DNA of 64,000 nt from Gemmatimonadota bacterium (GCA_003220935.1 QHTT01000072.1:577-64576), one strand, 5' to 3'. Positions 9,531 to 63,017 are shown, numbered from the stretch's first letter. Numbers and translations are program-made. Notes: a model not told the origin generated them from the letters alone.

Positions 9531-9595
9531 TTCCCGGGCTGAGAGCCCGGGCTCGGCGCGAATGTGTGCCCTGTAAGGGCGCGCCCGGGCCGGGC
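9531..9595 (-). repeat. Structured dispersed repeat, copy D (one terminal hairpin missing)
   Basis: ttcccggg-ctgagag-cccggg-ctcggc...gtgccc tgtaa gggcgc...gccgggc. Confidence 0.75.
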
Positions 9596-9671
9596 GCGAC
9601 TAACACGGAGGCCGACTGTGAGCGGACCGTCCGAGCAACCCCTGCCCGGAGCGCCAGTCTGGCGATGGCAG

Positions 9672-9745
9672 TAGCGGCGGTCGGACTCGAACCGACGACC
9701 CGCGGATTATGATTCCGCTGCTCTAACCAGCTGAGCTACGCCGCC
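9672..9745 (-). tRNA. tRNA-Met(CAT), probably elongator; CCA not encoded
   Basis: Reverse complement GGCGGCGTAGCTCAGCTGGTTAGAGCA-GCGGA-AT-CAT-AA-TCCGC-GGGTC-GTCGGTTCGAGTCCGAC-CGCCGCTA folds as a cloverleaf. No initiator features. Ile2 identity not fully excluded. Confidence 0.92.
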
Positions 9746-9764
9746 TTGAATGCAGGAACAGAAC

Positions 9765-10457
9765 TTAGCGGAGCCCCGGCCGGGACGGGAGTGCCCGCGC
9801 TTTGGTCGCGCCCTCGAGCGCGCGCCATAAATACCAGCTAGCCACCGTGCGGTACGGCTTCCACCGCTCACCGTGTCGTTCCAGCTCCGCGCGCGCCGGC
9901 AGCCCGCGTTTCTTGAACGCGATCGCGAAGCCCTTCCGAACGCCGTAGTCGTCTGCGGGCAGCACGTCGGGGCGGCCGAGGCGGAAAATCAGAAACATCT
10001 CCGCTGTCCACCGGCCGATACCGCGCACCACGGTGAGGCGCTCGACAAGCGCCTCGTCTTTCATGCGACGCGCCTCGGCGAGCGTGGGGATCTCGCCGTC
10101 GGCCACCCTCCGCGCGAGGTCGCGCAACGAGAGGAGCTTCGCACGCGACAGCCCGGCGCCCCGAAGCTGCACGTCCGAGACGCGCCGCATCTGCTCGGCC
10201 GTGGGGCCAGCGGGCGCGCGCGGAAACAGCGCGCACACGCGCGCGAAGATCGTAGCCGCGGCCCTGCCGCTGAGCTGCTGGTAGACGATGGCCTCCGCCA
10301 GCGCGGCGAAACTGCTCGGAGCACGCTTGAGCTGCAAGCGGAACGGCCCCACGGCGTCGATCACGCGCGCGAGCACCGGGTCGGACGCGCGCACGTGCTC
10401 GACCGCTACACGAGGATCGAAGCTGTACGCGCCGTCGTTCGCCAGTGCGGTGGCCAT
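9765..10457 (-). CDS. alkA: DNA-3-methyladenine glycosylase (AlkA-like, HhH-GPD)
   Basis: IVYQQLSGRAA, LTVVRGIGRWTAEM HhH motif, PDVLPADD, W-PYRTVASWYLW. Confidence 0.88.
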   Translation of the reverse strand: MATALANDGAYSFDPRVAVEHVRASDPVLARVIDAVGPFRLQLKRAPSSFAALAEAIVYQQLSGRAAATIFARVCALFPRAPAGPTAEQMRRVSDVQLRGAGLSRAKLLSLRDLARRVADGEIPTLAEARRMKDEALVERLTVVRGIGRWTAEMFLIFRLGRPDVLPADDYGVRKGFAIAFKKRGLPARAELERHGERWKPYRTVASWYLWRALEGATKARALPSRPGLR

Positions 10458-10463
10458 CGGCAG

Positions 10464-10967
10464 CTACTCCGCGCCCAGCCGTTTGATGAGCTGTACCTGC
10501 CCCGCGTGGTAGACAGCGTGGCAGGTGATGCCGAGGACCAGGTCGAAACGCTCGGCGTCGGTGAGTGACGATTGCGCTCGGCCGACGCGGATGTCGGCGA
10601 TGACCGTGGCTAATCGCCCCTGCTCCGCCTCCACCACGGCCCGGATCTCGGGCCAGGTCAGCTTGGACTGATCGGGCAGTGCGAACCAGTCGTCACCTTC
10701 CAGCACGAAGGGCTCCGCTGGTGTACCAGAGAGTTGGCCCCACACGGAGCGGGTGTAGTAGGCGTGATGCAGCGCAATCTCGGCGATGTTGTGACGCCCG
10801 GGCGCCGGCCGCCAGAACGCGAGCTGCGGCGAAACGTCGGCGAGCGCTGCCCTCAGGTCGGCACCGTGCCAGGCCCCCGGTCCGTATCCTTCCTCGACGA
10901 CCCGCGCGAGCACGCTCGGATCCAGCCCGGCCGGAATCGCTGTCTTGGCTTTCATCGCAACGCTCAT
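10464..10967 (-). CDS. DinB family protein
   Basis: GPGAWHG, HNIAEIALH, HAVYHAGQV His motif; start MSVAMK. Confidence 0.82.
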   Translation of the reverse strand: MSVAMKAKTAIPAGLDPSVLARVVEEGYGPGAWHGADLRAALADVSPQLAFWRPAPGRHNIAEIALHHAYYTRSVWGQLSGTPAEPFVLEGDDWFALPDQSKLTWPEIRAVVEAEQGRLATVIADIRVGRAQSSLTDAERFDLVLGITCHAVYHAGQVQLIKRLGAE

Positions 10968-11063
10968 GCTGCCCTCCCGCGTGAGTGGCGCAACCGGGGA
11001 TTGCCTTTGTGTCCCCCGGGCTTTCAAGTTGAGAGCATCATACGTAGTCACAGGAGCGAAGTC

Positions 11064-11993
11064 TTGGCAAAAATTGCGCTCGAGGTGGAGCGGGCGGTGG
11101 CGCAGCGCGCTCTGACCGGTGACCGGGGGCGCGTCACAGGGCGCGTGCTGGCTCGCGGCGAGGGCTGGACCGTCGAGGATGTGATCTGCACGTCCGGTCC
11201 CCAGGACCGACCGTTCGAAGAGTATCACGGGCACGTCTCGATCGGCATGGTCGCGGCGGGGACCTTTCAATACCGCTCCGCGGCGGGTCGCGAGCTGATG
11301 ACGCCAGGCTCGCTGCTGTTGGGCACCGCCGGTCAATGCTTCGAGTGTGGGCATGAGCATGGTTCGGGGGACCGCTGCCTCGCGTTTCGGTACACCCCGG
11401 ACTATTTCGAGCGCCTCGCGGCGGATGCGGGAGCCTCCGGCGCCGCGCCGGCGTTCCGGCTGCCTCGCTTGCCGCCGTTACGAGAGTTGGCGCCGCTCGT
11501 CGCACAGGCGTGCGCTGGTCTGGCCGGGTCCGTTGCAGTGGCGTGGGAGGAAGTGAGCGTCCACCTGGCGGCCCAGGTGGTGCAGCTGGTGAGCGCACTC
11601 CGCGCCAGCGGGAGCGGTGCGCCAGGCAACGCGGTGGCGCGCGTGACGCGAATGGTGCGGGCGATTGAACGTCGTCCCAGCGCGCGACTCAGCCTGGGAA
11701 GCCTGGCGCGTGACGCGGGTCTGAGCCCGTACCACTTCCTCCGCACGTTCCAGCGCGTGACGGGCGTGACCCCGCATCAGTTCGTGCTCCGGGCGCGCCT
11801 GCGTGAGGCCGCGCTGCGGCTGGTGGCAGAACGGGCGAAGATCATCGACATCGCTCTCGAGTGTGGCTTCGGCGACGTGTCGAACTTCAACCGCAGCTTC
11901 CGCGGCGAGTTCGGCGTCAGCCCGCGGGCCTATCGTCTGCGAACGGGGCCGGGGTGGAAACGACAACGTCGCAGTACCGCCCCGAATCCTTGA
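11064..11993 (+). CDS. AraC family transcriptional regulator
   Basis: LARDAGLSPYHFLRTF...IALECGFGDVSNFNRSFR C-terminal HTH pair. TTG start at 11064 inferred. Confidence 0.9.
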   Translation: MAKIALEVERAVAQRALTGDRGRVTGRVLARGEGWTVEDVICTSGPQDRPFEEYHGHVSIGMVAAGTFQYRSAAGRELMTPGSLLLGTAGQCFECGHEHGSGDRCLAFRYTPDYFERLAADAGASGAAPAFRLPRLPPLRELAPLVAQACAGLAGSVAVAWEEVSVHLAAQVVQLVSALRASGSGAPGNAVARVTRMVRAIERRPSARLSLGSLARDAGLSPYHFLRTFQRVTGVTPHQFVLRARLREAALRLVAERAKIIDIALECGFGDVSNFNRSFRGEFGVSPRAYRLRTGPGWKRQRRSTAPNP

Positions 11994-12203
11994 CGAAGGC
12001 TTAAGATTGATCACCATGGCCTTGCAGCTGGCGTTGGGCGCCCGACACATCCGTTGCTTGCCTGCCACAGGGGGGGTGGCACGGCTGGCTTGGTGTTCGG
12101 GCGGCGAGCCCCTGCCGAGCGGCCGACGCGGTGCGGCGCTTGCATGCCGCGCTAGGGAAGCCATGAGGACCCTCCCGCTCGCGGCGCTCGTCGGGGTGCC
12201 CCG

Positions 12204-13742: not shown

Positions 13743-14794
13743 TTCGCCGCCTGGTCACGACGCTCGTGGTCGCTGCGCTTGCGCTCGTGACCCGGGGCCC
13801 CACGGTCGCGGCCCAGTCCGCCACCGACCTGCTCACCACCGGAATGCGCTCGTACCAGAACCTCGACTACGAGGCGGCAGCAGCGACGCTGCGAAAAGGC
13901 CTGCTGCGCGCGACGAGCGACACCTTCTCCACCCCCGAGCGGCTCCAGGCGCTGACGTATCTCGGCGCCACCGAGCTGTTTCGGCGCCGCCGCGACTCTG
14001 CCGTAGCCGCGTTCCGGCAGATCGCAGTCACCGATCCGACCTACCGCCCGAGCGCGATCATCTTCCCGCCGCAGGTGACCAGCTTGTTCCAGGAAGTGCG
14101 CCAGGGAACGAGGACGGTCTTCATCCGGGTCCCGCCCGAGACCGAGTTTCGGGCCCGCGCCGAGCGCCTCACCGCCAGGCTGGTGGCGAGCACGCCGCAC
14201 GACATCGCCGTCGCAGTCACCCGCGACGACGGGGCCGTCGTGAATTCACTCTATAGCGGACCGATTGACGACAGCCTCGCGGTGACATGGGACGGCACGG
14301 AGCGGGGAGAGGCGGTGAAGAGCGGCCACTACCTGCTGCGGGTCACCTCACAGGCGGCAGCCGGCGCGCGCCAGCTGGTCCGCCAGCTCCCGCTCGAGAT
14401 CGAGCGGGCGCGCCCGGACACGCAGCCGTGGCCGTCGCCGGGCGATGCGACGTCGCCGGGAGTGCGTTCCGGGCCGGCGGTGCGCTCGCTCGCGGGAGGC
14501 CTGGCGGCGGCGGTCGCCGTGGTCGTGCTGCCGTCGATCGTCGCCCACGACGCCGACGGCATCAAGGGGCGATTCGCGGTGGCGGCCGCCATCGGTGGGG
14601 CCGGGCTGGCGAGCTTCTTCGCGCAGCGGTCCGCACCTCCCCTCGACGTCGTCGCCGGGGCGAGCGCCGCAGCGCGCGACGCGGCGAAGCGCCGCCTGGA
14701 GGACGTGCGGCGGCAGAACGCGAAGGCGCTCGCCGAGATCCGGCTGCGGGTGCGCGCCGGACCGGCGACGCTGCTGGAGCAGGGGGCGCAATGA
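13739..14794 (+). CDS. Secreted hypothetical protein (TPR-like N-terminus, FlgD-Ig-like middle domain)
   Basis: Signal peptide; helical repeat region; WDGT..GE.VKSGHYLLRV motif; ATGA overlap with the kinase gene. Confidence 0.7.
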   Translation: MIRRLVTTLVVAALALVTRGPTVAAQSATDLLTTGMRSYQNLDYEAAAATLRKGLLRATSDTFSTPERLQALTYLGATELFRRRRDSAVAAFRQIAVTDPTYRPSAIIFPPQVTSLFQEVRQGTRTVFIRVPPETEFRARAERLTARLVASTPHDIAVAVTRDDGAVVNSLYSGPIDDSLAVTWDGTERGEAVKSGHYLLRVTSQAAAGARQLVRQLPLEIERARPDTQPWPSPGDATSPGVRSGPAVRSLAGGLAAAVAVVVLPSIVAHDADGIKGRFAVAAAIGGAGLASFFAQRSAPPLDVVAGASAAARDAAKRRLEDVRRQNAKALAEIRLRVRAGPATLLEQGAQ

Positions 14795-15435: not shown

Positions 15436-15460
15436 CCAAGCCGCCGGCCGGGTGCGTCGA

Positions 15461-17784
<2,324 letters not shown>

Positions 17785-17788
<4 letters not shown>

Positions 17789-22719: not shown

Positions 22720-22722
22720 GCC

Positions 22723-35742: not shown

Positions 35743-35793
35743 GGGGGATATTCTAGTGTGGCGGCGGACGGGCGGACAGGCGGGCCCGATGCT

Positions 35794-35893
35794 GTTCGCA
35801 TCCTGAAGGATGGGCTCGGCACGGCGCTGTGCTGAAGCACATCCCCGTCCTTCGGGACAGTGTCCCGCCGAGCCCAGGCTTCAGCCTGGGAAC
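35794..35893 (+). repeat. Structured dispersed repeat, copy A (complete, two inner hairpins)
   Basis: gttcg-catcc tgaa ggatg-g-gctcggc-acggcgct...agtgtccc-gccgagc-c-caggc ttca gcctg-ggaac. Confidence 0.85.
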
Positions 35894-35939
35894 CTCCGAG
35901 CGGAACCCGCTACATCAGAACTCTCTACATTATTAAGGA

Positions 35940-42404: not shown

Positions 42405-43081
42405 CGCCCCCCCCGGTTCGCCTCGCCGTGCTCGTCTCGGGCGGCGGCACGAACCTGCTCGCCCTGCTCGACGCGCTCGCGGAATCGGGAGTCGCGCGGG
42501 TCGCCGGCGTAATCTCGAGCCGCGCTGACGCCGGCGCGCTGGAGCGAGCCCGCCAGCGGGGCGTGCCCGCCACCGTGCTCTCCGACCCCGCCGACGCCGC
42601 CGAGGTCATCACTAGCCTGGGCGACGCCAACCTCGTCGTCCTGGCCGGCTACTTGAAGCGGGTGCCGTCCGCCGCGGTCGCCCGCTTTGCGCTGCGGATG
42701 ATTAATATCCATCCGGCGCTGCTCCCCGCCTTCGGCGGCCCCGGCATGTACGGGCGCCGCGTGCACGAGCGGGTGCTCGCGAGCGGCGCCGCGATCTCGG
42801 GGGCGACGGTTCACTACGTGGACGAGGAATACGACCACGGGCCGATCATCGCCCAGTGGCCCGTGCCGGTGCGTCCCGGGGACACGCCGGACACGCTCGC
42901 GGCACGCGTGCTCGAGGTGGAGCATCGCTTGCTGCCGCTGGTAGTCCTGGAGTTGGCTCGGAGAGGCATGCCGAGCGTTCCCGTGCGACTGTTTCCCGAT
43001 GCGTCCGCGTTCGCGGCGCAGAACACACTTGCGGTGAGGTTTGTCGATGAGAGTCGACGGCGCGATGGATCCCCATCCTAA
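42401..43081 (+). CDS. purN: Phosphoribosylglycinamide formyltransferase
   Basis: SGGGTNL, LAGY, INIHPALLP, GATVHYV, YDHGPII. Confidence 0.95.
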   Translation: MTPPPVRLAVLVSGGGTNLLALLDALAESGVARVAGVISSRADAGALERARQRGVPATVLSDPADAAEVITSLGDANLVVLAGYLKRVPSAAVARFALRMINIHPALLPAFGGPGMYGRRVHERVLASGAAISGATVHYVDEEYDHGPIIAQWPVPVRPGDTPDTLAARVLEVEHRLLPLVVLELARRGMPSVPVRLFPDASAFAAQNTLAVRFVDESRRRDGSPS

Positions 43082-43133
43082 AGGATGGGCTCGGCCAAGC
43101 ACGACGCTGCAGCGTGCACCGTATGTGCTTGGC
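43069..43133 (+). repeat. Structured dispersed repeat, copy E (left arm and centre only)
   Basis: cccatcc taaa ggatggg ctcggc caagc acgacgct...; the purN stop TAA lies in the loop. Confidence 0.75.
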
Positions 43134-43139
43134 ACCACG

Positions 43140-43496
43140 CCGCGGCGCGTGCATGTCATCGACACCTTCGTTTCCGCCGATTCGCCACTGGAGCTGCCGA
43201 ACTTCGCGGTGGCACCGATCGGCCAGGGCGTGGTCGCACGGGCGCTCGACAACTCGTCCATCACACCTCCCGCCTACGTCGATTCGCTCGTCCAAGTCGC
43301 CCGTGCGCGGGGTGTGAAGCTTCAGGTCGGCACCACCAACGGGGGCAACGATGGCTCCGTGTTCACGCCGTACGGCGTCGTCGACGTCGCCATGGGCTGG
43401 CCGCTCCGCTACTCCCGCTCTCCCGCCGAGGTCGTGGACTTGCGCGATGTCGTGAGCCTCGCCGACATGATCCAGGCGGTGGGCGAGACCTGGTGA
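43140..43496 (+). pseudogene. C-terminal fragment of an M42/M28-type metallopeptidase
   Basis: VIDTFVSADSP, GGNDG, GWPLRYSRSPAEVVD (typical motif RYxHSPxE). Only ~118 aa, with no N-terminal part. Confidence 0.65.
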
Positions 43497-45103
43497 GAGC
43501 ACTGGTGTCGGTCTCGGACAAGCGGGGCGTCGTTGAGTTTGCTCGCGAGCTCGCGGCCCTCGGGTGCGAGATCGTGTCCACCGGCGGCACGGCGGACACG
43601 CTGCGCAAGGCTGGGGTACCGGTGACCCCCATCGAACAGGTCACCGGGTTCCCCGAGATGATGGACGGGCGGGTGAAGACGCTGCACCCCAAGGTGCACG
43701 GCGGCCTGCTGGCGCGGCGCGGTCATGCCGGCGACCGGGCGGCACTCCAGCAGCACGGCATCACGCCGATCGATCTCGTGGCGGTCAATCTCTACCCGTT
43801 TCGCGAAACGATCGCGCGGCCGGGCGTGACGTTCGAGCAGGCGATCGAGCAGATCGACATCGGCGGCCCGTCGATGCTGCGCTCGGCCGCGAAGAATCAC
43901 CAGGATGTCATCGTCGTCGTCGACCCGGATGATTATCCGGTCGTGCTCTCCGCGCTCAAGTCGGGCGCCGTAGCCCCGGGCGTCAGCCCGGGGACAGCCG
44001 GCGTCAGCCCGGGGATAGCCGGCGTCAGCCCGGGGATAGCCGGCGTCAGCCCCGAGCTGAGGCGGGAGCTCGCCGCCAAGGTCTTCGCCCACACCGCCGC
44101 ATACGACGCGGCCATTCACGGCTATCTGGTCCGGGACCGCCCCGGCTGGCCCGAGCGGATCACGCTGGCGCTGGAGCGCCGCCAGGAGCTACGCTACGGA
44201 GAGAATCCCCACCAGGCGGCGGCGCTGTACGCCGTCGACGAGCCCGGCATCCGCGACGTGGAGCAGCTGCACGGCAAGGAGCTCTCGTTCAACAACCTGC
44301 TCGACGTGGACGCCGCGCTCGCGGCGGTGGCGCCGTGGAGCGGCTCCGACCGCGCGGCGTGCGCCATCATCAAACACACCACCCCGTGCGGCATCGCCCT
44401 GGGCCCGGTCCCTGCCGCAGCATACGAGCGCGCACTCGCGACGGACCGCACGTCGGCCTTCGGGTCGGTGATCGCGTTCAATGCGGGGGTGGACCGCGCC
44501 GCCGCCGAGGCGATGCGTGAGCTGTTCGTCGAGGTGGTGGTCGCGCCCGCATTCCGGGATGACGCGTTGGGCGTATTGCGAGAGAAGAAGAACCTGCGTG
44601 TCCTCCGGCTCGCCGCCGATCCGGACCCGCCGGGCTGGGACTTCAAGCGGATCCGCGGCGGCTTCCTCGTCCAGGAGCGTTCCCGACCGGCCCGGGCGGC
44701 GGCCGAGGTGGAATGGAAAGTCGTCACGCGGCGCTCTCCCACCGAGGCGGAATGGACCGACCTGCGGTTCGCCTGGGCGGCCGTCGGGACAGTCAAGTCG
44801 AACGCGATCCTGCTCGCCCAGCGCGAGGCCGCGATCGGCATCGGCGCCGGGCAGATGTCGCGGGTGGATGCCTCGTTTCTCGCGGTCCACAAGGCGCGCC
44901 AGCAAGGCCACGATCCGGCTGGTGCAGTGTTAGCTTCCGACGCGTTCTTTCCGTTCGCAGACGGGGTAGAAGAGGCAGCCCGCGCCGGGGTGCGCGCGAT
45001 TATCCAGCCCGGCGGCTCGGTCAACGACGCCGAGGTGATCGCGGCCGCCGATCGGCACGGGCTAGCGATGGTGGTCACGGGCGTCCGGCAGTTCCGGCAC
45101 TAA
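43493..45103 (+). CDS. purH: Bifunctional AICAR formyltransferase/IMP cyclohydrolase
   Basis: ALVSVSDK, GRVKTLHP, IDIGGP, RYGENPHQ, SDAFFPF, RQFRH; GTG start. Confidence 0.97.
   Translation: MRALVSVSDKRGVVEFARELAALGCEIVSTGGTADTLRKAGVPVTPIEQVTGFPEMMDGRVKTLHPKVHGGLLARRGHAGDRAALQQHGITPIDLVAVNLYPFRETIARPGVTFEQAIEQIDIGGPSMLRSAAKNHQDVIVVVDPDDYPVVLSALKSGAVAPGVSPGTAGVSPGIAGVSPGIAGVSPELRRELAAKVFAHTAAYDAAIHGYLVRDRPGWPERITLALERRQELRYGENPHQAAALYAVDEPGIRDVEQLHGKELSFNNLLDVDAALAAVAPWSGSDRAACAIIKHTTPCGIALGPVPAAAYERALATDRTSAFGSVIAFNAGVDRAAAEAMRELFVEVVVAPAFRDDALGVLREKKNLRVLRLAADPDPPGWDFKRIRGGFLVQERSRPARAAAEVEWKVVTRRSPTEAEWTDLRFAWAAVGTVKSNAILLAQREAAIGIGAGQMSRVDASFLAVHKARQQGHDPAGAVLASDAFFPFADGVEEAARAGVRAIIQPGGSVNDAEVIAAADRHGLAMVVTGVRQFRH
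43971..44053 (+). repeat. 21-bp tandem repeat x3.5, in frame in purH
   Basis: ggcgtcagcccgggga(c/t)agcc units encode GVSPG(T/I)A. Confidence 0.9.
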
Positions 45104-45107: not shown

Positions 45108-47225
45108 ATGACGAGCATGCGCGACCAACTCACGCCGTACACCGACGCCGGGCGCCCTCCCTATGTCGCCGCACTGGTCGTCGCTCTGGGCGCGCTGATC
45201 CTTTACATCGTGACGCTCGCGCCGACGACGCAGTTCTGGGACGCGTCGGAGTACATCACCGCCGTGCACGCATTCGGCATTCCCCATCCTCCCGGGAACC
45301 CGCTTTTCATCCTACTGGCGCACGCGTGGGGACTGCTCCCACTCGGCGCCGACTACGCGCGGCGCATCAACCTGCTCGCCGCAGCGACGAGCGCGGCGGC
45401 CGCAGGGTTCTGGTTCCTGATCGCGGAGCGCTGGTTGCGCCCGATCGTGTCACCCACGTGGCCGCGGCGCCTCAGCGCGGCTGCGGGGGTGATGGTCAGC
45501 GCGACGACGTTCACGGTGTGGAACCAGTCGGTGGTGAACGAAAAGGTGTATACGGTGAGCGTCCTCTCGATCGCGCTCGTGCTGTGGCTCGCGGTGCGCT
45601 GGGCCGATCAACCCGCCGCGGCCCGGCGCGACCACCAGCTCGTGCTGATCGTGTACCTGCTCGCGCTCACGGCAACGAACCACCTCATGGGAGTGCTCGC
45701 CGCGCCCGCCCTGCTGGTCTACGTCCTGGTGACCGATCCGCGCGCCCTGGTGCGGCCCCGCTTCCTCATCGCGGCGGCCCTCGTCGCGGCGGTGGGGACC
45801 AGCGTCGACCTCTTCATGCCGATCCGCGCGCACTTCGATCCCTACCTGAACGAGGGCGAGCCGACCACGTGGCAGGCCCTCCAGGCCGTCCTTGCACGCG
45901 CGCAGTTCGGAAAGCCATCGGTGTTCGCTAATCCCATGTATCCGCCCGGCCCGGACAACCCCGGCCACACGCTCGTCCTCTACGGACAGCAGCTCCTGAA
46001 CTACCTGCAGTACTTCACATGGCAGTTCGGCCACGACTGGGACGCGGCGGTGCAGCGCTTCCTGGCGCTGGCCTTCGCGGCGCTCGGCCTGGCGGGCGCC
46101 CGGCGGCAGTGGCGCGCCGAGCGTCGTGCCGCGCTCGCGATGACCACGCTCGTCATCAGCGACTATTTCTTCATCGCGTCGTTTGCGCTGTGGGGGATCT
46201 GGGTGGGAATGGGCCTCGCAGCGCTGATGGAGTGGCTCCAGAGCGGCCTGAGCGCCCGCGAGCCGAACGCCGCGCGGCGCTGGGCGGTGTGCACGCCCGT
46301 CCTGCTCGTCGCGCTCGTGCCGCTGCTCGGCAATCGCCTCACCGCCTCGCGCGCGGGCGAGACGATGGCCCGTGACTATGCCCGCGATGTGCTGCAGTCG
46401 CTCGACCCCTACGCGCTCGTGGTTACGGCCGGCGACAACGATACGTTCCCATTGTGGTATGCGCAGGAAGTGGAGGGTGTACGCCGGGACGTGAACGTGC
46501 TCGTGTTGTCGCTCGCCAACACCGACTGGTATCTGCGCCAGTTGCAGCGCCGGCCTCCCCCGATCTTCGACCCCCGGTCTGCCCCCGCCCTGTACGGCAA
46601 CCGGAACTGGCCGCGGCCGACGACGCCGTGGATGAGCCGATACTATTTGCGTGAGCCCGCGGACACCCTCCCGCCGTACGCCCCCCTCGCGCAGCCGATC
46701 ACGGGCTACCTCGGGCCGATTGAGGTCACGGTCGACCCCCGCGCTTTGGGGCGTCCCTACCTGGAGCGCTCCGACCTGGCGGTGCTACAGATCATTAAGG
46801 ATCAGCTGGGCAAGCGCCCCATTTACTTCTCCACCTCCACGGGGAACTACGCGGACCAGTTGGGGCTTTCCCCCTATCTGCTGGGCGAAGGGTTGGTGCG
46901 TCGCGTGGTGCCCCGGACGGTCACGCCGAGCGACACCGTGCGGCTCGTGCCGGGCCGAGGGTTCGTGAACATACCGCGGACGCGCGCGTTGGCGTTCGAT
47001 GTGTACTCGGGGGGTGAGACCGCGGCTCGCCCCCGGCCGCGCGGCTGGGTGGACGTCCCGTCGCAGAGCAACCTGTTCGGCTACGCCTTCGTGTACGATA
47101 CGATCGCGGCGGTGCTGCGGGAGCGAGAGCCGGCGCTGGCGCTCCGGGCGGGTGAGCTGCGCGACGCGATCCTCGCCAACACGACATACACGCTGCCCGC
47201 CGAGCGGCGCGCCGCCGGCAATTAA
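45108..47225 (+). CDS. DUF2723 (TMEM260-like, GT-C) membrane protein, paralog 1
   Basis: LAPTTQFWDASEY, GIPHPPGNPLF, GDNDTFPLWYAQEVEG. Confidence 0.88.
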   Translation: MTSMRDQLTPYTDAGRPPYVAALVVALGALILYIVTLAPTTQFWDASEYITAVHAFGIPHPPGNPLFILLAHAWGLLPLGADYARRINLLAAATSAAAAGFWFLIAERWLRPIVSPTWPRRLSAAAGVMVSATTFTVWNQSVVNEKVYTVSVLSIALVLWLAVRWADQPAAARRDHQLVLIVYLLALTATNHLMGVLAAPALLVYVLVTDPRALVRPRFLIAAALVAAVGTSVDLFMPIRAHFDPYLNEGEPTTWQALQAVLARAQFGKPSVFANPMYPPGPDNPGHTLVLYGQQLLNYLQYFTWQFGHDWDAAVQRFLALAFAALGLAGARRQWRAERRAALAMTTLVISDYFFIASFALWGIWVGMGLAALMEWLQSGLSAREPNAARRWAVCTPVLLVALVPLLGNRLTASRAGETMARDYARDVLQSLDPYALVVTAGDNDTFPLWYAQEVEGVRRDVNVLVLSLANTDWYLRQLQRRPPPIFDPRSAPALYGNRNWPRPTTPWMSRYYLREPADTLPPYAPLAQPITGYLGPIEVTVDPRALGRPYLERSDLAVLQIIKDQLGKRPIYFSTSTGNYADQLGLSPYLLGEGLVRRVVPRTVTPSDTVRLVPGRGFVNIPRTRALAFDVYSGGETAARPRPRGWVDVPSQSNLFGYAFVYDTIAAVLREREPALALRAGELRDAILANTTYTLPAERRAAGN

Positions 47226-50998: not shown

Positions 50999-51002
50999 CT
51001 CG

Positions 51003-54960: not shown

Positions 54961-55060
54961 CCGAGCCGCGGCTTGCGCCGCGCTCTTCCAGCCGATAGAC
55001 CCACACCGCCGTCCGGCGTATGCTTCGTTTCCCACGATCCCGAGGAAGGCAGGTGTGGTC

Positions 55061-55825: not shown

Positions 55826-55850
55826 ACCACGGCGGCGGGAGCGGCCCCCG

Positions 55851-56573: not shown

Positions 56574-56579
56574 GGGGTG

Positions 56580-57155
56580 ATGCCGCGGATCCGTCTCCTG
56601 CTCGTATGGGCCGTCTGCCTGGGCGCCGGCTTGACCGCCGTGCGGCTCGCCCCGGCCGCCGTCGCCTCGTGGCGGTCCCGTCGGCAGGCGCTCGAGCTGG
56701 ACTCGATCCGGGTGATCACCAGGGCCGGGGCGTTTCCCTTGATCGAGATCACGCTGCGCAACCCGGCACGCTCGATCAGCTTTCTCACGACGCTCGACGC
56801 GGAGGTGGCCACCCGCCTCCGCCGGGGGCAGGCTGGTGGTTGCTCCGGGGACCCGGCCGCATGGGACTACGATCTGCTGATCGACGGACGGCGCGCCGCG
56901 GAGCACGACACCGTGCCGCTCTCCCAGCTCGTCGACCCGGAAAGCCTGCACCGTTTCGCGATCGCCGTCGGGCAGGCCGGCCCGCCGGCGCACGGTGAGT
57001 ACGAGCTAACTCTCATGCTCCGCTACAACGAGCGTGCCACCCTGCCGCTGGGCCACGTCGAGCTCTCCATCGACGGCCTGGGGTGCGTGCTCGCGCCGGG
57101 CGGGCGACCTGTGCGACCCATGCGGGTCGAGCGCGTCCGGCTCCCTAAGGCTTGA
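56580..57155 (+). CDS. Hypothetical membrane-anchored protein
   Basis: N-terminal hydrophobic segment; operon position. Confidence 0.55.
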   Translation: MPRIRLLLVWAVCLGAGLTAVRLAPAAVASWRSRRQALELDSIRVITRAGAFPLIEITLRNPARSISFLTTLDAEVATRLRRGQAGGCSGDPAAWDYDLLIDGRRAAEHDTVPLSQLVDPESLHRFAIAVGQAGPPAHGEYELTLMLRYNERATLPLGHVELSIDGLGCVLAPGGRPVRPMRVERVRLPKA

Positions 57156-57190
57156 AATCCGCTTGAGACCGCGGCGCGACCGTACGCGCC

Positions 57191-57778
57191 ATGCAAGCGG
57201 TCACCTTGTTCGGGTACGCGTTTCTTTCGAACGTCGCGCTCGCCGTCCTTCCCCACGAGCCCGCGATTATCTGGTACGGGGCACGCCTCGGCGTGTGGCC
57301 GACTGCGGTGGTTGCGACCGCGGGCACGGTTGCCGCCGCGCTGGTCGACCACCGGTTGTTCGTGCCGCTGATCCGGCGAGTCAACGCGCGTAGCCAGGCG
57401 TCCCAGATGGTTCCCGGGCTGAAGCCCGGGCTCGGCGCGTGGGCGTCCTTAAGGACGCACCCCCAGCCGAGCGCGCCCTCTCAGGGCGCGAATCTCCGGG
57501 CCGACACCATCTTTCGCCGCTTCCCGTTCGCCGTGATCGCTCTCTCCGGGCTCACGCCCCTCCCCTTCTTCCCCGTGAAAGCCCTCGCCTTTACCACGGG
57601 TTACCCGCTCGCGCGGTATCTCGCCGCCGTCGCGGCACGCTCGCTGCCGCGCTACGCGCTGCTCGCGTGGCTCGGCGTCGCCGTGCGGCTGCCGACCGGG
57701 CTCCTCGTCGCCCTGTTCGTGCCGCTGCTGATCCCCGCGTTGCGCACGCTGCCATGGCGCCGGCCAAGCGCGAGCTGA
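57191..57778 (+). CDS. DedA/YqaA (VTT domain) membrane protein with an in-frame repeat insertion
   Basis: LPHEP, ATAGTVAAALVD, GLTPLPF, RSLPRY. Confidence 0.72.
   Translation: MQAVTLFGYAFLSNVALAVLPHEPAIIWYGARLGVWPTAVVATAGTVAAALVDHRLFVPLIRRVNARSQASQMVPGLKPGLGAWASLRTHPQPSAPSQGANLRADTIFRRFPFAVIALSGLTPLPFFPVKALAFTTGYPLARYLAAVAARSLPRYALLAWLGVAVRLPTGLLVALFVPLLIPALRTLPWRRPSAS
57410..57493 (-). repeat. Structured dispersed repeat, copy B (complete, in frame in a CDS)
   Basis: gttcccggg ctgaag cccggg ctcggc...gcgtcc ttaa ggacgc...gccgagc g cgccc tctca gggcg cgaat. Confidence 0.85.
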
Positions 57779-58467
57779 CCTGCTGGCTCGCCGACCCGGA
57801 GCGGCGGCTGCTGCGTGCGGTCGCGACGCGGCTGCCTGCGGCGGTGCATTCCGATCACCTCACCGCCCTTGGCATCCTCGGCGCCGTGGGCGTGGGCGCC
57901 GCGTACGCGCTGTCGCGCTGCAACGCGGAGTGGCTGTGGGTGGCGAGCGCGTGCCTCGTGGTGCAGTGGCTCGGCGACAGCCTCGACGGCACGCTGGCAC
58001 GGGTGCGCGGCGCCGAGCGGCCGCGCTACGGCTACTACCTCGATCATGTGGTGGATGCATTCTCGACCTCCGTGATCGGCGTCGGTCTGGGACTCTCGCC
58101 GTACGTACAGCTGGGAGTCGCCCTGGGCGTGGTGATCGTCTATCTCGCCCTGTCAATCAACGTCTATCTCGAAGCGAACGTGTTCGGCGTGTTTCGGCTC
58201 GCTTACGGCCGGATTGGCCCCACCGAAGTACGAATCATTCTGATCGCGGCCAATGCGACGCTCGCGCTCGCTGTGCCAGGACGGATGGTTACCGCGGTCG
58301 CTACGGGTACGGTCGGACTACTCGGGATCTGCATGCTAGGGATGCTGCTCGCGAGAGTCGCCAGCAATCTGAGGACGCTTTCCCAGCAGGAACCGGCTCT
58401 CCAGCCGAGTCCTCGCTCCTCGCGCCTCAAAGCCACTGAACGCCTCGGCATCTCGGCGTCTACCTAG
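57754..58467 (+). CDS. CDP-alcohol phosphatidyltransferase family protein
   Basis: GDSLDGTLAR...RYGYYLDHVVD signature; start ATG 57754. Confidence 0.9.
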   Translation: MAPAKRELTCWLADPERRLLRAVATRLPAAVHSDHLTALGILGAVGVGAAYALSRCNAEWLWVASACLVVQWLGDSLDGTLARVRGAERPRYGYYLDHVVDAFSTSVIGVGLGLSPYVQLGVALGVVIVYLALSINVYLEANVFGVFRLAYGRIGPTEVRIILIAANATLALAVPGRMVTAVATGTVGLLGICMLGMLLARVASNLRTLSQQEPALQPSPRSSRLKATERLGISAST

Positions 58468-59167
58468 CCGTCTCGGCATCTACGTCCATGAGTATCTGTC
58501 GTACTCTTCTGAACACCGTGTGCCACATCGCGCGCGTGAGCTTGCCGGTGTTCGTGTTCTGCCGGCTCGGATGGTAGGACGAGATGAGCCGCGTGCCGTC
58601 AGGCAGCGTCGCGACCGCGCCGTGGGCAAACGGGGGCCGCTGTCGCGGGGCGAGCGTCGTCCACCAACCCGACGCCTTGAGCCAGCTCTCGTGTGCGACG
58701 CGACCGAGCGTCACCACCACCCTGCGGCGCGAGAGCAGCCGCAGCTCGGCCGCGAGGAACGGCCGGCAGCGCCCGAGCTCCGTCCGGCTCGGCTTGTTGC
58801 CCGGAGGCGCGCACCGCACGGCGGCAACGATGTAGCAGTCGGTGAGCTCGAGACCGTCGTCGCGTGCGCGCGACGCAGCCTGGCTCGCGAAGCCGTAGCG
58901 GTGGAGCGCCTCGTACAGCCAGGCGCCGCTCGAGTCGCCCGTGAACATGCGGCCGGTGCGGTTCGCGCCGTGCGCCGCGGGCGCGAGCCCGACGACGAGC
59001 AGACGCGCGCGCGGGTCGCCGAACCCTGGGACCGGCTTCCCCCAGTACTCCCAATCGCGGAATGCGCGCTTCTTCTCGCGCGCCACGCGACGGCAGTACG
59101 CGCGCAGCCGAGGGCAACGGGCGCACGACACAATCGCACGATTGACGCTGGAGAGAGAAGCGAGCAT
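58460..59167 (-). CDS. udgB: Uracil-DNA glycosylase family 5 (UdgB)
   Basis: CARCPRL, GLAPAAHGANRTGRMFTGD, CAPPGNKP, HPSRQNTNTG. Confidence 0.92.
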   Translation of the reverse strand: MLASLSSVNRAIVSCARCPRLRAYCRRVAREKKRAFRDWEYWGKPVPGFGDPRARLLVVGLAPAAHGANRTGRMFTGDSSGAWLYEALHRYGFASQAASRARDDGLELTDCYIVAAVRCAPPGNKPSRTELGRCRPFLAAELRLLSRRRVVVTLGRVAHESWLKASGWWTTLAPRQRPPFAHGAVATLPDGTRLISSYHPSRQNTNTGKLTRAMWHTVFRRVRQILMDVDAETAR

Positions 59168-59187
59168 GGACGCGTCTTGTTGGCGTA

Positions 59188-59266
59188 TTCCCACGCTGAA
59201 GCGTGGGCTCGGCAATACACTACCCTTAAGGGTAGCGTCGTGCCGAGCCCACCCCTCGGGGTGTGA
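59188..59266 (-). repeat. Structured dispersed repeat, copy C (complete)
   Basis: ttcccacg ctgaag cgtggg ctcggc aatacact accc ttaa gggt agcgtcgt gccgagc c caccc ctcg gggtg tga. Confidence 0.85.
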
Positions 59267-59312
59267 TCACACACCGGTGCGTTGTTGTGTCTGCTTGCGT
59301 TGCGGCGGGCTG

Positions 59313-59849
59313 CTAGAACCTGATCGCTATGCCCTGGTGCGTCGTTCCGGCGATCGTGAACGTTTCGACCGCGAGCGCGGCACCGAGCAGCCACGGCCGG
59401 ACGCGCGCCGGCAGCGCCGCCGCCGCGCCGAGCACGGCTAGACCGGTGACGGCCGTGTAGGTATTCAACTGGCCGACTGTCGGGTGGGAGCCGAGGATCG
59501 GATTCGACTCGCGGAAGTTGCGCCAGCCGCCCTGAGCGAGCCAGCGGGTCTGTCCGGCGTCGATCAGCAGCGCGACCGTGAAAGCGCCTGCCAGCGCGAT
59601 GTCGGACTGGCGCCACGACAAGCGTGGAGGCGCCGGCAGCGCGGCGCTGAACACGGTCAGCCGCACTGTCGGCTTGAGCGGGGTCGACCGGATCGGCGCG
59701 GCAGACAGCTTCCAGGAGATGTCACGTTGATGGTAGGCCCGCGGCGCGGCCCAGAATTCATGGTCTTTCAGGGCGCGCTGCGCGACGCTCTGCCCGGGCA
59801 ACGCGGCCAGCGCGGCGACTACGATCAAGACTGCCGGAGTGTGCCTCAT
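59313..59849 (-). CDS. Secreted/membrane hypothetical protein (DUF5658-like D-x-x-x-T...E-x-NP motif)
   Basis: Signal peptide MRHTPAVL...; IDAGQTR...RESNPILG. Confidence 0.6.
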   Translation of the reverse strand: MRHTPAVLIVVAALAALPGQSVAQRALKDHEFWAAPRAYHQRDISWKLSAAPIRSTPLKPTVRLTVFSAALPAPPRLSWRQSDIALAGAFTVALLIDAGQTRWLAQGGWRNFRESNPILGSHPTVGQLNTYTAVTGLAVLGAAAALPARVRPWLLGAALAVETFTIAGTTHQGIAIRF

Positions 59850-60059
59850 ACGCAGCGCTGCGTCAGGGCAAAGGGGGTGCCAGGTGTGGTGCCGGCGGAA
59901 CCCTCTCGTCCCGCAAGGATTCCTTGCACCCCGCCATGGTCGGCCGTGGCGTGACGCTGCGATTGTGTTGCGCGGGTGAGACAGTCTCACCATGCAAGAA
60001 GTCCGCGCGTCTTGCCGGGTGTCTCAGAGCGCGGCTAGGTTGCGTGAACTGCAACAGAC

Positions 60060-61295
60060 CTAGTGTGGTGTCAACACCGAATTCCCCGATGCATCCGCCG
60101 CAATAGCGAAGTCCGCCACACTTCGTCCCAGCGCCTGCCCGGCCTCGATGTCGAACCGGTAGTGGATGCCCGCGTACATGCGTGACAGCCCCGCCTGGGT
60201 GACCTTCGCGGCCAGGTCATCGCGCTGCTCCGGGAAGAAGGTGCTCAGCACGGCTGCGGCCGAAGAGGAGAGGCAGCTGTGCCCGGAGGGATAGGACGGG
60301 TGGTTGGGCTTTCCGACCGCGGCGACGACCGTGATCAGCGGGTCCGCCTGCCAGGGCCGGATGAACCAGTACGTCTCCTTCGCGTCCCAGCAACCGATCT
60401 GCGCGTCGAACATCGTAGCGCTGAGCAGGGCGTAGAGATGTGTCGCCTCACGCTCGGACAGGGCGTGCTCATTGATGCCGTCGGTAGCGATGTGGATCCA
60501 GTACGCCGCTGTGGTGGGTGTGCCGGCGTTCTGCGCCCAGAAGGTGGCGCTCTGTACCTGGTCGGCCGTGCGGGTGTCGGAGATTTGGCGGATTTCGGCG
60601 AGCGCGGCTGTGAATGCCGTGGACCCAAACGCTGGCGGTGGCGCCGGTCGGAACTGGTTCGCGGAACTCAGGAACCAGGGGGTCACCCCCGGGAGCTGCC
60701 CGCCCGCGATCGTCGCCGGGGTCGTGTTACTGATCCACAGCCCGGAGCCCGTTGGAATGGTACCGGTGAAGGCGTTGGTGAAGCCGTCGGTTCGGGCCCT
60801 CGCAACGATCTCGCCGCCGATCGCGCGACCGATCGCTGCACCGCGCCCGAACGCCGGGTGCACCCCGCCGGGGCTGGTGTTCGCCTGCCCGTTGACCATG
60901 GCCTCCAACGCCTGAGCCTGGCTGGGGAAGAGGTAGGTCAGCACGACGGCCGACGCGCCCGCGACGGCGCCGCGATCCGATTCCAGTTGCTCTCGCCCGC
61001 CACCCCCGTCCCTGCCTTCGGCCTGTTGCACGGCCAGGTACTGCGCGACGCCCACCAGGGAATACGCGCGCACGGCGACCACCGGGCTGAGGTTCGCCTG
61101 TGCAACCAGGCTGGCTTCGGTCGCCTGCCACGCCGGGCTGGCGAGACCCGCCGTGAACGGCAGGCCGCTGCGTGACGCGGCAAGACTGAGGCCCGTCGGG
61201 GCGGAAGCGTGATCGGCGCAGCCGGTCAGCGCGGCGAAGCCTGCCGCGATCGCAAACGAGCGAACGACCTGCCGCGGGTTGTTTCGGGGACTCAT
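60060..61295 (-). CDS. Vanadium haloperoxidase / PAP2 superfamily lipoprotein
   Basis: KETYWFIRP, HPSYPSGH, SRMYAGIHY; LTGC lipobox; ggagg RBS. Confidence 0.87.
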   Translation of the reverse strand: MSPRNNPRQVVRSFAIAAGFAALTGCADHASAPTGLSLAASRSGLPFTAGLASPAWQATEASLVAQANLSPVVAVRAYSLVGVAQYLAVQQAEGRDGGGGREQLESDRGAVAGASAVVLTYLFPSQAQALEAMVNGQANTSPGGVHPAFGRGAAIGRAIGGEIVARARTDGFTNAFTGTIPTGSGLWISNTTPATIAGGQLPGVTPWFLSSANQFRPAPPPAFGSTAFTAALAEIRQISDTRTADQVQSATFWAQNAGTPTTAAYWIHIATDGINEHALSEREATHLYALLSATMFDAQIGCWDAKETYWFIRPWQADPLITVVAAVGKPNHPSYPSGHSCLSSSAAAVLSTFFPEQRDDLAAKVTQAGLSRMYAGIHYRFDIEAGQALGRSVADFAIAADASGNSVLTPH

Positions 61296-61328
61296 GGGAA
61301 CCTCCGTCGCGGTTCGAGAGGGAGCACG

Positions 61329-61363
61329 AAAAAAAACGGCTAAGCGTGTAGCCTGCTCAGCCG
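61329..61363 (-). terminator. Intrinsic terminator-like hairpin in the 5' leader of the haloperoxidase gene
   Basis: Minus strand cggctgagc-loop-gcttagccg followed by T8. Confidence 0.6.
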
Positions 61364-61593
61364 GTTTCGCGATTCGCTCCCCTCGAGGCATGGGCGACCC
61401 GCACGACATCGCGCCTCGGGGTTCATAGCTTCTGAGTTGCGTCCCAATATGCAGCGAACTGGGCCGCGCGCTAGGGGCTGCACGAGAGCATGCGCTGCTT
61501 TCTGTCGGGCAAGTTTATTTCGCCGCCGTTGTGTTCGGCGTCGTTACCGGGGCTTGCATAAGCCTAGGTGACCGGCGACGTTCTGCTCTTGTA

Positions 61594-61684
61594 GGAGAGG
61601 TGGCCGAGTGGCTGAAGGCGGCGGTTTGCTAAACCGTTATAGGGCCTAAAAGCCTTATCGGGGGTTCGAATCCCCCCCTCTCCG
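61594..61684 (+). tRNA. tRNA-Ser(GCT); CCA not encoded
   Basis: GGAGAGGTGGCCGAGTGGCTGAAGGC-G-GCGGT-TT-GCT-AA-ACCGT, long variable arm, GGTTCGAATCC, CCTCTCC-G. Confidence 0.95.
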
Positions 61685-61696
61685 TACCTCACCACC

Positions 61697-62980
61697 ATGT
61701 CCACGCGCGTCCGCTTCGCCCCCTCGCCCACGGGCTACCTCCACGTCGGCGGCGCCCGCACCGCGCTCTTCAATTGGCTGTACGCGCGCCGCGTCGGCGG
61801 CCGGTTCCTGCTGCGCATCGAGGACACCGACAAGCAGCGCTCCACCGACGAGCATACCCGGGTGATACTCGACGGTCTCACCTGGCTCGGCCTCGATTGG
61901 GACGAAGAGCCCGTGTTCCAGGGCGCTCGGGTGAAGCGGCACCAGGAGGTCGCGGACAAGCTCCTCGCTGACGGCAAGGCGTACCTGGAGGAAGGGGCGA
62001 TCCGCTTCCCCCTGCCGCCCGGTGAGATCGCCTGGGACGACGCGGTGCACGGCCCGATCTCGTTTCAGGGCGATGACATCAAGGACTTCGTCATTCTGCG
62101 CACCGACCGTACGCCCATCTACAACTTCGCGGTCGTGGTGGACGACATCGATATGAGGATCACCCACGTGCTGCGCGGCGACGATCACATCTCCAACACG
62201 CCGAAGCAGATCGCCTTATATCGCGCGCTGGGCGCCTCGCTGCCCAGGTTCGGCCATGTGCCGATGATCCACGGTCCCGACGGCAAGAAGCTCTCCAAGC
62301 GCCACGGCGCTGAAGCAGTCGGCGACTACGAACACATGGGGATCCTGCCCGCTGCCATGCGCAACTTCCTCGCCTTGCTCGGCTGGAGCCCCGGCGGCGA
62401 CCGGGAGATCATGACGCTCGACGAAATGGTGCGGCTGTTCTCCTTCGAGGGTATCCAGAAGAAACCGGCCATCTTCGACATGACGAAGCTTGAATGGATG
62501 AACGGGCAATACTTGTCCATGGCGCCGGCCGAGGAGCTGTATCCGCTGGTGTCGCCCCAGCTCGCGCAGCTCGGCCTGAACGGCAACCAGGACGCCGTCT
62601 TGAAAGCGATCGCGGCGGTGAAGACCCGCTCGCGCACCACGCTCGACGTGGCGAAGCAGGTAGCCGTGCGGCTCGACGCGAAATTCGTCGCGTTCGACGA
62701 CAAGGCGAAAAAAGAAATCGCCAAGGATCCGGCGGGTTACCAGGCGTCGCTCGAGGCGAGCCTCGCCGTCCTGCGCAAGACCGACTGGACGTCGCAAGCG
62801 CTGGAGCAGAGTTTGCGCGCCCTCGCCGACGCAAAGGGTGTGGCCGCCGGGAAGATCTTCCAGCCGATCCGTATCGCGCTCACCGGCGGAACGGTGTCGG
62901 AGCCGGTGAACGAGCTGCTGTATGTCGTTGGGAAAGAGGCGGCGCTGAAGCGGCTGCAGGCGGCGGTCAACTACGCTTAG
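61697..62980 (+). CDS. gltX: Glutamate--tRNA ligase (short form)
   Basis: RFAPSPTGYLHVGG, LRIEDTD, THVLRGDDH, KLSKR. Confidence 0.95.
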   Translation: MSTRVRFAPSPTGYLHVGGARTALFNWLYARRVGGRFLLRIEDTDKQRSTDEHTRVILDGLTWLGLDWDEEPVFQGARVKRHQEVADKLLADGKAYLEEGAIRFPLPPGEIAWDDAVHGPISFQGDDIKDFVILRTDRTPIYNFAVVVDDIDMRITHVLRGDDHISNTPKQIALYRALGASLPRFGHVPMIHGPDGKKLSKRHGAEAVGDYEHMGILPAAMRNFLALLGWSPGGDREIMTLDEMVRLFSFEGIQKKPAIFDMTKLEWMNGQYLSMAPAEELYPLVSPQLAQLGLNGNQDAVLKAIAAVKTRSRTTLDVAKQVAVRLDAKFVAFDDKAKKEIAKDPAGYQASLEASLAVLRKTDWTSQALEQSLRALADAKGVAAGKIFQPIRIALTGGTVSEPVNELLYVVGKEAALKRLQAAVNYA

Positions 62981-63017
62981 CGTAGTGTTTCGCCGAGCAC
63001 ACCCTTTAGGGTGTGAC
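62941..63017 (+). repeat. Structured dispersed repeat, copy F (left arm degenerate)
   Basis: ctacgc tta gcgtag tgtttc gccgagc a caccc ttta gggtg tgac. Confidence 0.75.

Follow-up and report, generated by a model that had tools for sequence, protein, structure and literature searches.

The window analysed here is a 64,000-nucleotide (nt) stretch, positions 577–64576 of contig C14, of the draft genome of an uncultured soil Gemmatimonadales bacterium (G000; 4,036,211 bases in 154 contigs, 68.7% G+C, 85% complete). It contains six copies (A to F) of a dispersed repeat built from short hairpins, which belongs to a family that adjoins Y1 (HUH) genes elsewhere in the genome. All six had been marked in an initial annotation of the window, and a direct check of the sequence located each of them within a few bases of the positions given there. 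Three copies (A, B and C) are complete; of the others, D and E retain the left half and F the right half. Read in one orientation, a complete copy consists of TT, a 7-bp hairpin (CCCAxyC-TGAA-Gy'x'TGGG), CTCGGC, a few unpaired bases, one or two small hairpins, a few more unpaired bases, GCCGAG, a second 7-bp hairpin with the loop TTCA, and AA. The two end hairpins are referred to below as repetitive extragenic palindrome (REP) hairpins. The reverse complement of a complete copy has the same layout, with no intrinsic direction. A shared orientation had been assigned initially, but A is inverted relative to B, C and D; since the architecture is symmetric, copy orientation is without meaning.

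Copy A (35793–35894) lies between divergent thrS-like and valS-like genes and has two inner hairpins. It comprises the left REP hairpin GCATCC-TGAA-GGATG, CTCGGC, the inner hairpins GTGC-TGAA-GCAC and GTCC-TTCG-GGAC, GCCGAG, and the right REP hairpin CCCAGGC-TTCA-GCCTGGG. It scored 74.9 bits with an nhmmer profile and 94.5 and 93.2 bits on the two strands with a covariance model (CM), and its DNA fold gave a z of −5.0 on both strands. Copy B (57409–57494; nhmmer 45.9 bits; CM 71.7 and 71.3 bits) has one inner hairpin and reads CCCGGGC-TGAA-GCCCGGG, CTCGGC, GCGTCC-TTAA-GGACGC, GCCGAG, GCGCCCT-CTC-AGGGCGC. Its DNA fold shows three separate hairpins plus the CTCGGC/GCCGAG stem, with z values of −4.8 and −6.0 on the two strands. 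This copy is located in frame within an open reading frame (ORF; 57191–57778) for a VTT/DedA-like membrane protein of 195 residues with a weak VTT-domain match, and the frame is open throughout. Copy C (59186–59269; nhmmer 48.9 bits; CM 77.6 and 75.1 bits) also has one inner hairpin and reads CCCACGC-TGAA-GCGTGGG, CTCGGC, CTACCC-TTAA-GGGTAG, GCCGAG, CACCC-CTC-GGGTG. It is intergenic, with a uracil-DNA-glycosylase-family gene on one side and an unnamed ORF on the other.

The partial copies score lower. Copy D (9528–9592; nhmmer 25.1 bits; CM E-value 0.006) is of a subfamily with TGAGA loops and reads CCCGGGC-TGAGA-GCCCGGG, CTCGGC and the inner hairpin GCCC-TGTAA-GGGC, followed by a degenerate right arm without GCCGAG, and a tRNA gene (9672–9745, minus strand) is 77 nt away. 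Copy E (43068–43130; 23.5 bits; CM E-value 0.002) directly follows a purN-like gene and consists of CCCATCC-TAAA-GGATGGG, CTCGGC and part of the interior. Copy F (62940–63018; 20.8 bits; CM E-value 0.006) retains the inner hairpin CTACGC-TTA-GCGTAG, GCCGAG and CACCC-TTTA-GGGTG, and the stop codon of a gltX-like gene (61697–62980) is located inside the loop of that inner hairpin. The arm pattern GCTCGGC-N20-50-GCCGAGC occurs five times in the window against 0.27 expected, with a maximum of two in 100 shuffles. Copies A, B and C account for three of these matches; those at 46082 and 57969 are in coding sequence, have no flanking hairpins and are chance matches.

The initial count of at least six copies extends to a genome-wide family. 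The nhmmer profile, made from 30 seeds, gave 140 matches on both strands of G000, which merge into 74 loci in 4.04 Mb; the window accounts for the six known copies and no seventh. From these loci, 24 full-length copies were selected to build the CM, named R1, which gave at least 113 matches at E ≤ 0.01 with both strands counted (best 2e-19; 150 of 5431 first-look candidates scored). The R1 scores of the two strands differ by only about 1–4 bits for nearly every copy. Oriented as a hairpin followed by CTCGGC, the loops are TGAA in 52 cases, TAAA in 11 and TCAA in 5. The units are mostly inverted doublets and fall into subfamilies sharing the CTCGGC/GCCGAG arms. The main one has CCCAxyC stems; the TGAGA-loop subfamily, to which B and D belong or with which they are mixed, has GCGCCC and CCCGGGC stems with TGAGA/TCTCA loops; and two further ones have ATGAGGGAC...GTCCCTCAT ends and CGCGGC/CGCGAG stems, respectively. 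No copy in the window has an Rfam match at the gathering threshold, and a search of 20 copies at E ≤ 1 returned sub-threshold matches only, mostly to microRNA-precursor models; the family is thus absent from Rfam, the first of the comparisons that had been proposed.

The placement of the copies is strongly biased. Gene calls were made with our own crude codon-usage caller, which predicted 3560 genes and a coding coverage of 90.4%. In this densely coding genome only 16.7% of the element bases overlap predicted genes, and about 83% are intergenic. Of the 69 copies whose context could be classified, 18 lie between convergent genes, compared with 398 of 3406 intergenic spaces genome-wide, and nine lie between divergent genes; copies are therefore over-represented downstream of genes and under-represented in divergent contexts.

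The alignment of the 24 full-length copies bears out the proposal that the stems change in sequence while pairing is kept. With a structure of local hairpins, 88.3% of the cells are paired, compared with 76.4% in shuffled alignments, and two-sided changes are found in 108 cells against 51.9; none of 500 shuffles reached either observed value. The end hairpins and the two inner hairpins are 92.9–95.2% paired, and pairing drops to only 27–41% when the structures are slid by 1–3 columns. Wobble pairs are rare, at most two cells per hairpin helix, so that the compensation is almost entirely Watson–Crick. The arms had been described as nearly invariant, and indeed CTCGGC is identical in 24 of 24 copies and GCCGAG in 23 of 24, the stem that they form varying in one cell only.

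Folding with ViennaRNA and DNA parameters gave z values of −4.8 to −6.2 on both strands and preferred, for A and C, one long hairpin made by pairing of the left and right REPs. Covariation rejects this fold as the conserved one: across the halves, 16–20 of the 24 copies leave the variable stem positions unpaired, and the overall pairing of 80.7% is below the shuffled mean of 83.6%, with 500 of 500 shuffles at least as high. Since the variable positions fail to pair across the halves, the covariation backs the local hairpins. An inward extension of the CTCGGC/GCCGAG stem (alignment columns 34–37 with 79–82) was also discarded; about half of the cells pair, and this region is thus probably an internal loop.

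The two sides of a doublet were also compared with each other. Among the 23 doublets parsed in G000, none has the same stem on both sides, against 2.1–2.3 expected (P about 0.08–0.09); the parser required 4-nt loops and exact arms and left out the TGAGA-loop and ATGAGGGAC subfamilies. The corresponding test in related genomes used 59 loci fetched among the R1 matches listed, of which 14 were unparsed, and found no homotypic doublet in 45, against 9.2 expected, with 0 of 20,000 shuffles as extreme. By eye, the 14 unparsed loci show no clean homotypic doublet, and one of them (L135) has a hybrid left hairpin. The common pairings of end hairpins are ATCC with ACGC and ACCC with AGGC. Because copies share descent, there are few independent events (four main stem types in about five combinations); counted as stem combinations, the contrast between about five heterotypic kinds seen and none of the four homotypic ones lacks significance. 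By eye, the ATGAGGGAC subfamily (C66:8671, C77:32226 and C145:18745) is homotypic. Since the two REPs of a main-subfamily doublet are never of the same type, a long hairpin across the doublet is interrupted and local hairpins are favored.

The window indeed lacks a cognate transposase gene, as had been remarked, but the genome does not. A search with PF01797 (Y1_Tnp) revealed four genes in G000, all above the cut-off. They encode proteins of 127–157 residues that share 24–35% identity, with no near-identical pair, and that have in common an invariant HUH motif (H56 and H58) and Y116...Q120. The closest solved structures are TnpA of ISDra2, of IS608 and from Sulfolobus (E-values 1e-11 to 6e-4). 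Two of the four genes are flanked by the element family, as had been suggested as a test. The gene at C129:5669–6079 has main-subfamily elements 28 nt upstream (5521–5640) and 14 nt downstream (6093–6174). The gene at C149:166–561 is accompanied by TGAGA-loop elements, one on one side (88–179) and three on the other (628–713, 747–839 and 928–1015). The remaining two genes are flanked by other hairpins. At C92:3369–3752 (locus L002) these are GACCCCGGGCC...GGCCCGGGGTC hairpins, for which a simple GACCCCGGGCC-N-GGCCCGGGGTC pattern has 41 matches in the genome, including one in the window at 43974–43993; at C124:107509–107982 (locus L001) they are tandem arrays of CCCCGYSC-N4-GSRCGGGG hairpins. 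The distinct flanking hairpins indicate that each gene has its own repeat family. Other neighbors of the four genes are unrelated housekeeping-type ORFs.

The same arrangement recurs in relatives. Four of the five congeneric genomes have orthologues of the C129-type protein with 73–93% identity, and other genera have weaker relatives. The gene is placed between the start of gyrA and a gene for an oxidoreductase in 11 distinct genomes, G000 among them, with protein identities of 63–95%. Among Gemmatimonadales loci with a relative of the C129 protein, an R1 element adjoins the gene in 16 of 16 distinct loci, on both sides in 11 of them; R1 matches are also nearby at seven more distant loci of the same family, and none was found at the three loci from other phyla. 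In the congener G004, B-like copies flank a Y1 gene at C102:9922–10305. The relatives have 1–4 Y1 genes per genome. A scan with R1, as initially recommended (up to 97 candidates per genome scored), gave matches in all five congeners, in at least 15 of the 24 genomes from their taxonomic family (the unpublished G019 included) and in at least two of 16 from two other families. Across 40 relatives, R1 matches occur in 12 of 17 genomes with a Y1 gene compared with five of 23 without, although these genomes are incomplete and, being related, are not independent.

Two further observations concern these loci. Beside the C129 gene, gyrA has 97 nt fewer (C129:5059–5064; about 891–894 in locus L045) than in the congener G005 and another metagenome-assembled genome (MAG). 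Without this segment, which encodes an ...AAYRYTE... motif, the frame is broken into two parts, probably because of a MAG assembly artefact or a population variant. The G005 orthologue of the C129-type gene (L046, G005:C7:8456–8854) has one in-frame TGA and may be a pseudogene or contain a sequencing error, although among the congeners G005 is the richest in element copies.

Collectively, these observations indicate that the repeats are very probably REP-type palindromic DNA elements, mostly inverted doublets resembling REP doublets forming hairpins (REPINs) or bacterial interspersed mosaic elements (BIMEs), which would be moved by cognate single-copy HUH/Y1 enzymes. The initial annotation had offered a choice between a non-autonomous mobile element linked to HUH enzymes and a structured RNA or single-stranded DNA motif; the Y1 genes flanked by copies back the HUH-type reading, and a structured RNA is not favored. 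By analogy with known systems, we infer that the Y1 proteins bind, cleave and mobilize the elements and that the C129 and C149 genes probably copy them.

The mechanism proposed is taken over from work on IS200/IS605 TnpA and on REP–TnpAREP. On one strand, the REP unit is 5'-GCCGAG followed by the 7-bp hairpin (CCCAxyC-TTCA-Gy'x'TGGG) and AA-3', with one or two small inner hairpins separating two such units that face each other. In single-stranded DNA, for instance at a replication fork, each unit could fold into its hairpin. The cognate enzyme, putatively that of C129 for the main subfamily and that of C149 for the TGAGA-loop subfamily, would then bind the folded hairpin through its loop, the base of its stem and the adjacent GCCGAG foot, and would cleave and rejoin the strand so that doublets are copied or moved. 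In this proposal, the loop, the CCC/GGG stem base and the foot would be fixed because the protein reads them, and the middle of the stem, which would need only to pair, could vary between element lineages with full Watson–Crick compensation. For a perfect-palindrome REP analyzed by systematic evolution of ligands by exponential enrichment (SELEX), loop bases were reported to be essential, complement swaps in the stem to have a modest effect and a stem mismatch nearly to abolish cleavage; REP enzymes are described as contacting the loop and stem irregularities, with TnpAREP using a conserved foot as well (PMC8266576). The conservation seen here matches that pattern, with the loop, stem base and foot fixed and the mid-stem free but paired.

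Several points weigh against this interpretation. The Y1 proteins are IS200-like by profile: NF033573 (IS200/IS605) gives 48.5–76.7 bits, above its 55-bit cut-off in three of four (C149 has 48.5), and NF047646 (REP-associated transposase) gives 24.7–42.5 bits, below its 80-bit cut-off for all four; a six-frame search of G000 with the latter matched only three of the four genes. The structure of the E. coli REP-associated tyrosine transposase (RAYT) is absent from the PDB matches at E ≤ 0.01. The foot is GCCGAG/CTCGGC rather than the canonical GT[AG]G or CGTC. The co-occurrence is imperfect, with R1 matches in five of 23 relatives without a detected Y1 gene (G017, G019, G021, G038 and G040) and none in five of 17 relatives with one, and in the 85%-complete assembly no Y1 gene adjoins the ATGAGGGAC...GTCCCTCAT and CGCGGC/CGCGAG subfamilies. 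At site A, the difference between filled and empty alleles, about 165 nt, exceeds the 102 nt of the element, and among the orthologous sites compared no clean empty/filled pair that would give exact ends or a target site was found. Finally, the compensatory signal comes from few events, the four main stem types being common to many copies and retained at orthologous sites. Since orthologous copies keep their stems between species, the compensatory changes, which are real, mark a handful of old element lineages and not many recent events.

Three other explanations were considered. The one that survives best, although very unlikely, holds that the repeats are miniature derivatives, composed of a left and a right end, of an ordinary and still mobile IS200/IS605 insertion sequence (IS), mobilized in trans by an active IS transposase instead of a domesticated, single-copy enzyme of RAYT type. 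The NF033573 scores and the nearest solved relatives, all IS transposases, are as expected for such an origin, and so is the Y-x3-Q spacing, which is that of subclasses 1.1/1.2 in Table 1 of PMC6006769. An active IS would, however, be difficult to reconcile with four genes of which no two are alike, with a C129-type gene that keeps one chromosomal site in 11 genomes at identities down to 63%, or with about 74 element loci for two genes. A TnpB domain was searched for in G000 and not found, and neither were several near-identical copies of a gene with its ends, of which one could have been missed in the incomplete assembly. Moreover, the genes are flanked by whole doublets and are not placed between one left and one right hairpin.

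Selection for a function at the RNA level, such as a cis-acting mRNA 3' stabilizer, a terminator or a small RNA, is highly improbable. It would account for the excess of copies downstream of genes and for folds that greatly exceed shuffled sequences in stability. In E. coli, an effect of REPs on mRNA turnover is reported (PMC3479197), and two metatranscriptome libraries contain contigs that match element cores, one with a B-like copy, though the presence of a contig does not show transcription. An RNA would have one sense strand, yet the element strands score alike with R1, so an RNA role is not favored. In the hairpins, wobble pairs are no commoner than other mismatches; a count on the sense strand of co-directional contexts (13 G–T-type versus 8 A–C-type mismatches) is small and noisy, includes stem ends as mismatches and is not informative. 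In addition, no T-run follows the hairpins of the six window copies, no Rfam family matches, and copy B is read in frame within a predicted protein gene.

The least probable explanation, that the repeats are double-stranded or cruciform sites for host chromosome-organizing proteins, as for E. coli BIMEs (REPs and BIMEs are described as binding sites for host proteins in PMC2817692), with incidental Y1 genes, suits the symmetric architecture and the persistence of copies at orthologous sites (C in G001, A in G005 and D in G003) but leaves unexplained why copies adjoin every related Y1 locus examined and why a separate hairpin family accompanies each Y1 gene; as a secondary role, such binding is compatible with REP-type elements moved by Y1 enzymes.

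REP-type elements with a cognate Y1 gene are known as REPtrons, and the system described here is one of this REPIN–RAYT kind. It combines many-copy, mostly extragenic palindromes in inverted doublets with a Y1 gene that has intact HUH and Tyr motifs, is flanked by copies, has no near-identical duplicates and occupies one chromosomal site, with one gene per repeat family. The novelty implied at first is therefore reduced, this kind of system being already known. To our knowledge, REP/REPIN–RAYT systems have been studied almost entirely in Proteobacteria. No description of a REPtron in Gemmatimonadota was found in the literature searched, and the string "Gemmatimon" has no occurrence in the two surveys that were text-searched, including the main text of PMC6006769.

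Own repeat families per gene, as seen here, have been described for REPtrons (PMC6006769). The E. coli REP/BIME–TnpAREP system is alike in its short hairpins with a conserved foot, occurring in many, mostly extragenic copies and in inverted pairs of two different REP types, in a single-copy HUH/Y1 gene flanked by several REP pairs, and in a stem that must pair with a loop and foot read by the protein, the last presumed here by analogy (PMC3333891, PMC3479197, PMC8266576). As described in the same sources, its foot is GTAG rather than GCCGAG; moreover, the stems here are perfect, without a bulge, and conserved inner hairpins are added between the two REPs. The protein differs too, given the NF047646 scores and PDB matches mentioned above. 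The REPIN–RAYT systems of Pseudomonas share a doublet that looks like the copied unit, flanking repeats that are abundant genome-wide, a single-copy Y1 gene at one site, inherited vertically (here presumably), and copies that persist at orthologous sites across species (PMC3116915, PMC3337134, PMC5581495). Yet their copies are reported to number in the hundreds (bioRxiv 10.1101/119743), compared with 74 loci here; main-subfamily doublets here are never of one REP type, so that the long REPIN hairpin is interrupted; and the proteins are IS200-like rather than Group 2 or Group 3 RAYTs.

Among the classes of TnpAY1 described in PMC6006769, two come close. Class 3 has a REPtron-like arrangement, atypical hairpins, several related genes per genome and an occurrence in soil phyla; its reported motifs are NHVH, W[TA] and YV[VI]xEQ, and its phyla Planctomycetes, Acidobacteria and Proteobacteria. 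The 5' foot of class 3 is CnGA, and GCCGAG contains CCGA one base from the stem; W-A is present in three of the four proteins. Compared by description, however, class 3 has Y-x4-Q, a 155-position core and a median of 178 residues, whereas the proteins here have Y-x3-Q and 127–157 residues. Subclass 1.2 is alike in its low copy number and in an identity of about 36% between copies in one genome, and its DH[IV]H, WQ and Y---Q--HH motifs are all matched by the C124 protein; unlike the present genes, its IS200-like members are reported without REPs, mostly from Cyanobacteria and Bacteroidetes. Judged by sequence, the Y1 proteins share features with class 3 and subclass 1.2 and appear to fit neither fully. 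IS200/IS605 elements such as ISDra2 and IS608 have the closest proteins, by sequence and solved structure, and likewise have subterminal single-stranded DNA hairpins that are recognized, but they are described as multi-copy and near-identical, often with tnpB and with the gene between a left and a right end (PMC6006769), none of which is seen here. Integron attC sites, too, are recognized as folded single strands and conserve structure more than sequence (PMC8266576); they are located in cassette arrays beside the gene of a tyrosine-recombinase integrase, whereas the repeats here are dispersed, lack cassettes and lie beside HUH enzymes.

The logic of a REPtron, in which a single-copy Y1 gene at one chromosomal site is flanked by its own hairpin repeats, is thus found in an uncultured soil lineage. 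Finding IS200-like proteins in this role is relevant to the frequency of transposase domestication of this sort and to the branch from which it started. With its constant loop and foot and a stem that varies but stays paired, the family is also a set of natural variants with which recognition by the enzyme could be probed. A bolder reading, possible but on balance doubtful, is that Gemmatimonadota domesticated an IS200-like Y1 branch, separate from the classical RAYT groups, as several parallel REPtrons with a hairpin family each, and that main-family doublets are obligately heterotypic, the single strand folding into three or four short hairpins around a fixed CTCGGC/GCCGAG stem. If so, selection would act against a long palindrome as well as for local hairpins, and the elements would also be tolerated as in-frame insertions in protein loops.

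The history of the copies was followed at orthologous sites. Site A is filled in G000 and G005, holds only the right half in G003 and another palindrome in G002, and is empty in G001 and G004, where about 65 further bases are also missing; TCTA-like words occur on both sides of the 165-nt difference, and the boundaries are not clean. Beyond the GTTCCC...GGGAAC ends, no flanking duplication is common in the 24-copy alignment. Copy B lengthens one loop of the VTT/DedA-like protein. The corresponding loop in G001 and G005 is shorter, and a hairpin of the C92 type (GACCCCGGGCC...) encodes it, so that two repeat families occupy one protein loop in different species. Site C has an orthologue with the same stems in G001 and the left hairpin alone in G002. 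Copy D is present in G003 and absent from G004, where the interval is 45 nt compared with 182 nt in G000. Site E is at the edge of a 1.7-kb insertion/deletion relative to G001 and G003, and site F aligns end to end in G001 and has 2.3 kb more in G004. At the partial copies E, F and D (43082–43504, 62980–63006 and 9473–9671), relatives have an extra 1.7, 2.3 and 1.2 kb, respectively, or their contigs end. Empty orthologous sites, which had been recommended as a check, therefore exist for A (G001 and G004) and D (G004), but not as a clean pair with exact ends. The presence or absence of copies and the insertions and deletions at these sites show that the copies are old and unevenly retained, often at indel boundaries. 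As the relatives' contigs end at sites D, E and F, the repeats evidently break metagenome assemblies; they can also be mistaken for structured RNAs.

Assembled contigs from soil DNA were examined as well. At least half of the sampled words of 56600–63600 were found in 18 runs from 14 studies, with an increase in summed depth across the bins that contain B and C. Soil contigs diverge from the window at 57423/57490 and 59188/59221, and one of them joins 59221 to 62984 with 12 other letters between. These contigs were interpreted as further members of the family with different flanking sequence, and not as products of excision; no joint indicative of excision or insertion was observed in the assembled soil contigs. 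Apart from the repeats, the window contains a c-di-GMP-II riboswitch (RF03169) at 61350–61442 on the minus strand, with 46.9 bits against a gathering score of 40, upstream of an ORF ending near 60060. The summed depth of this stretch in the soil metagenome contigs is very high.

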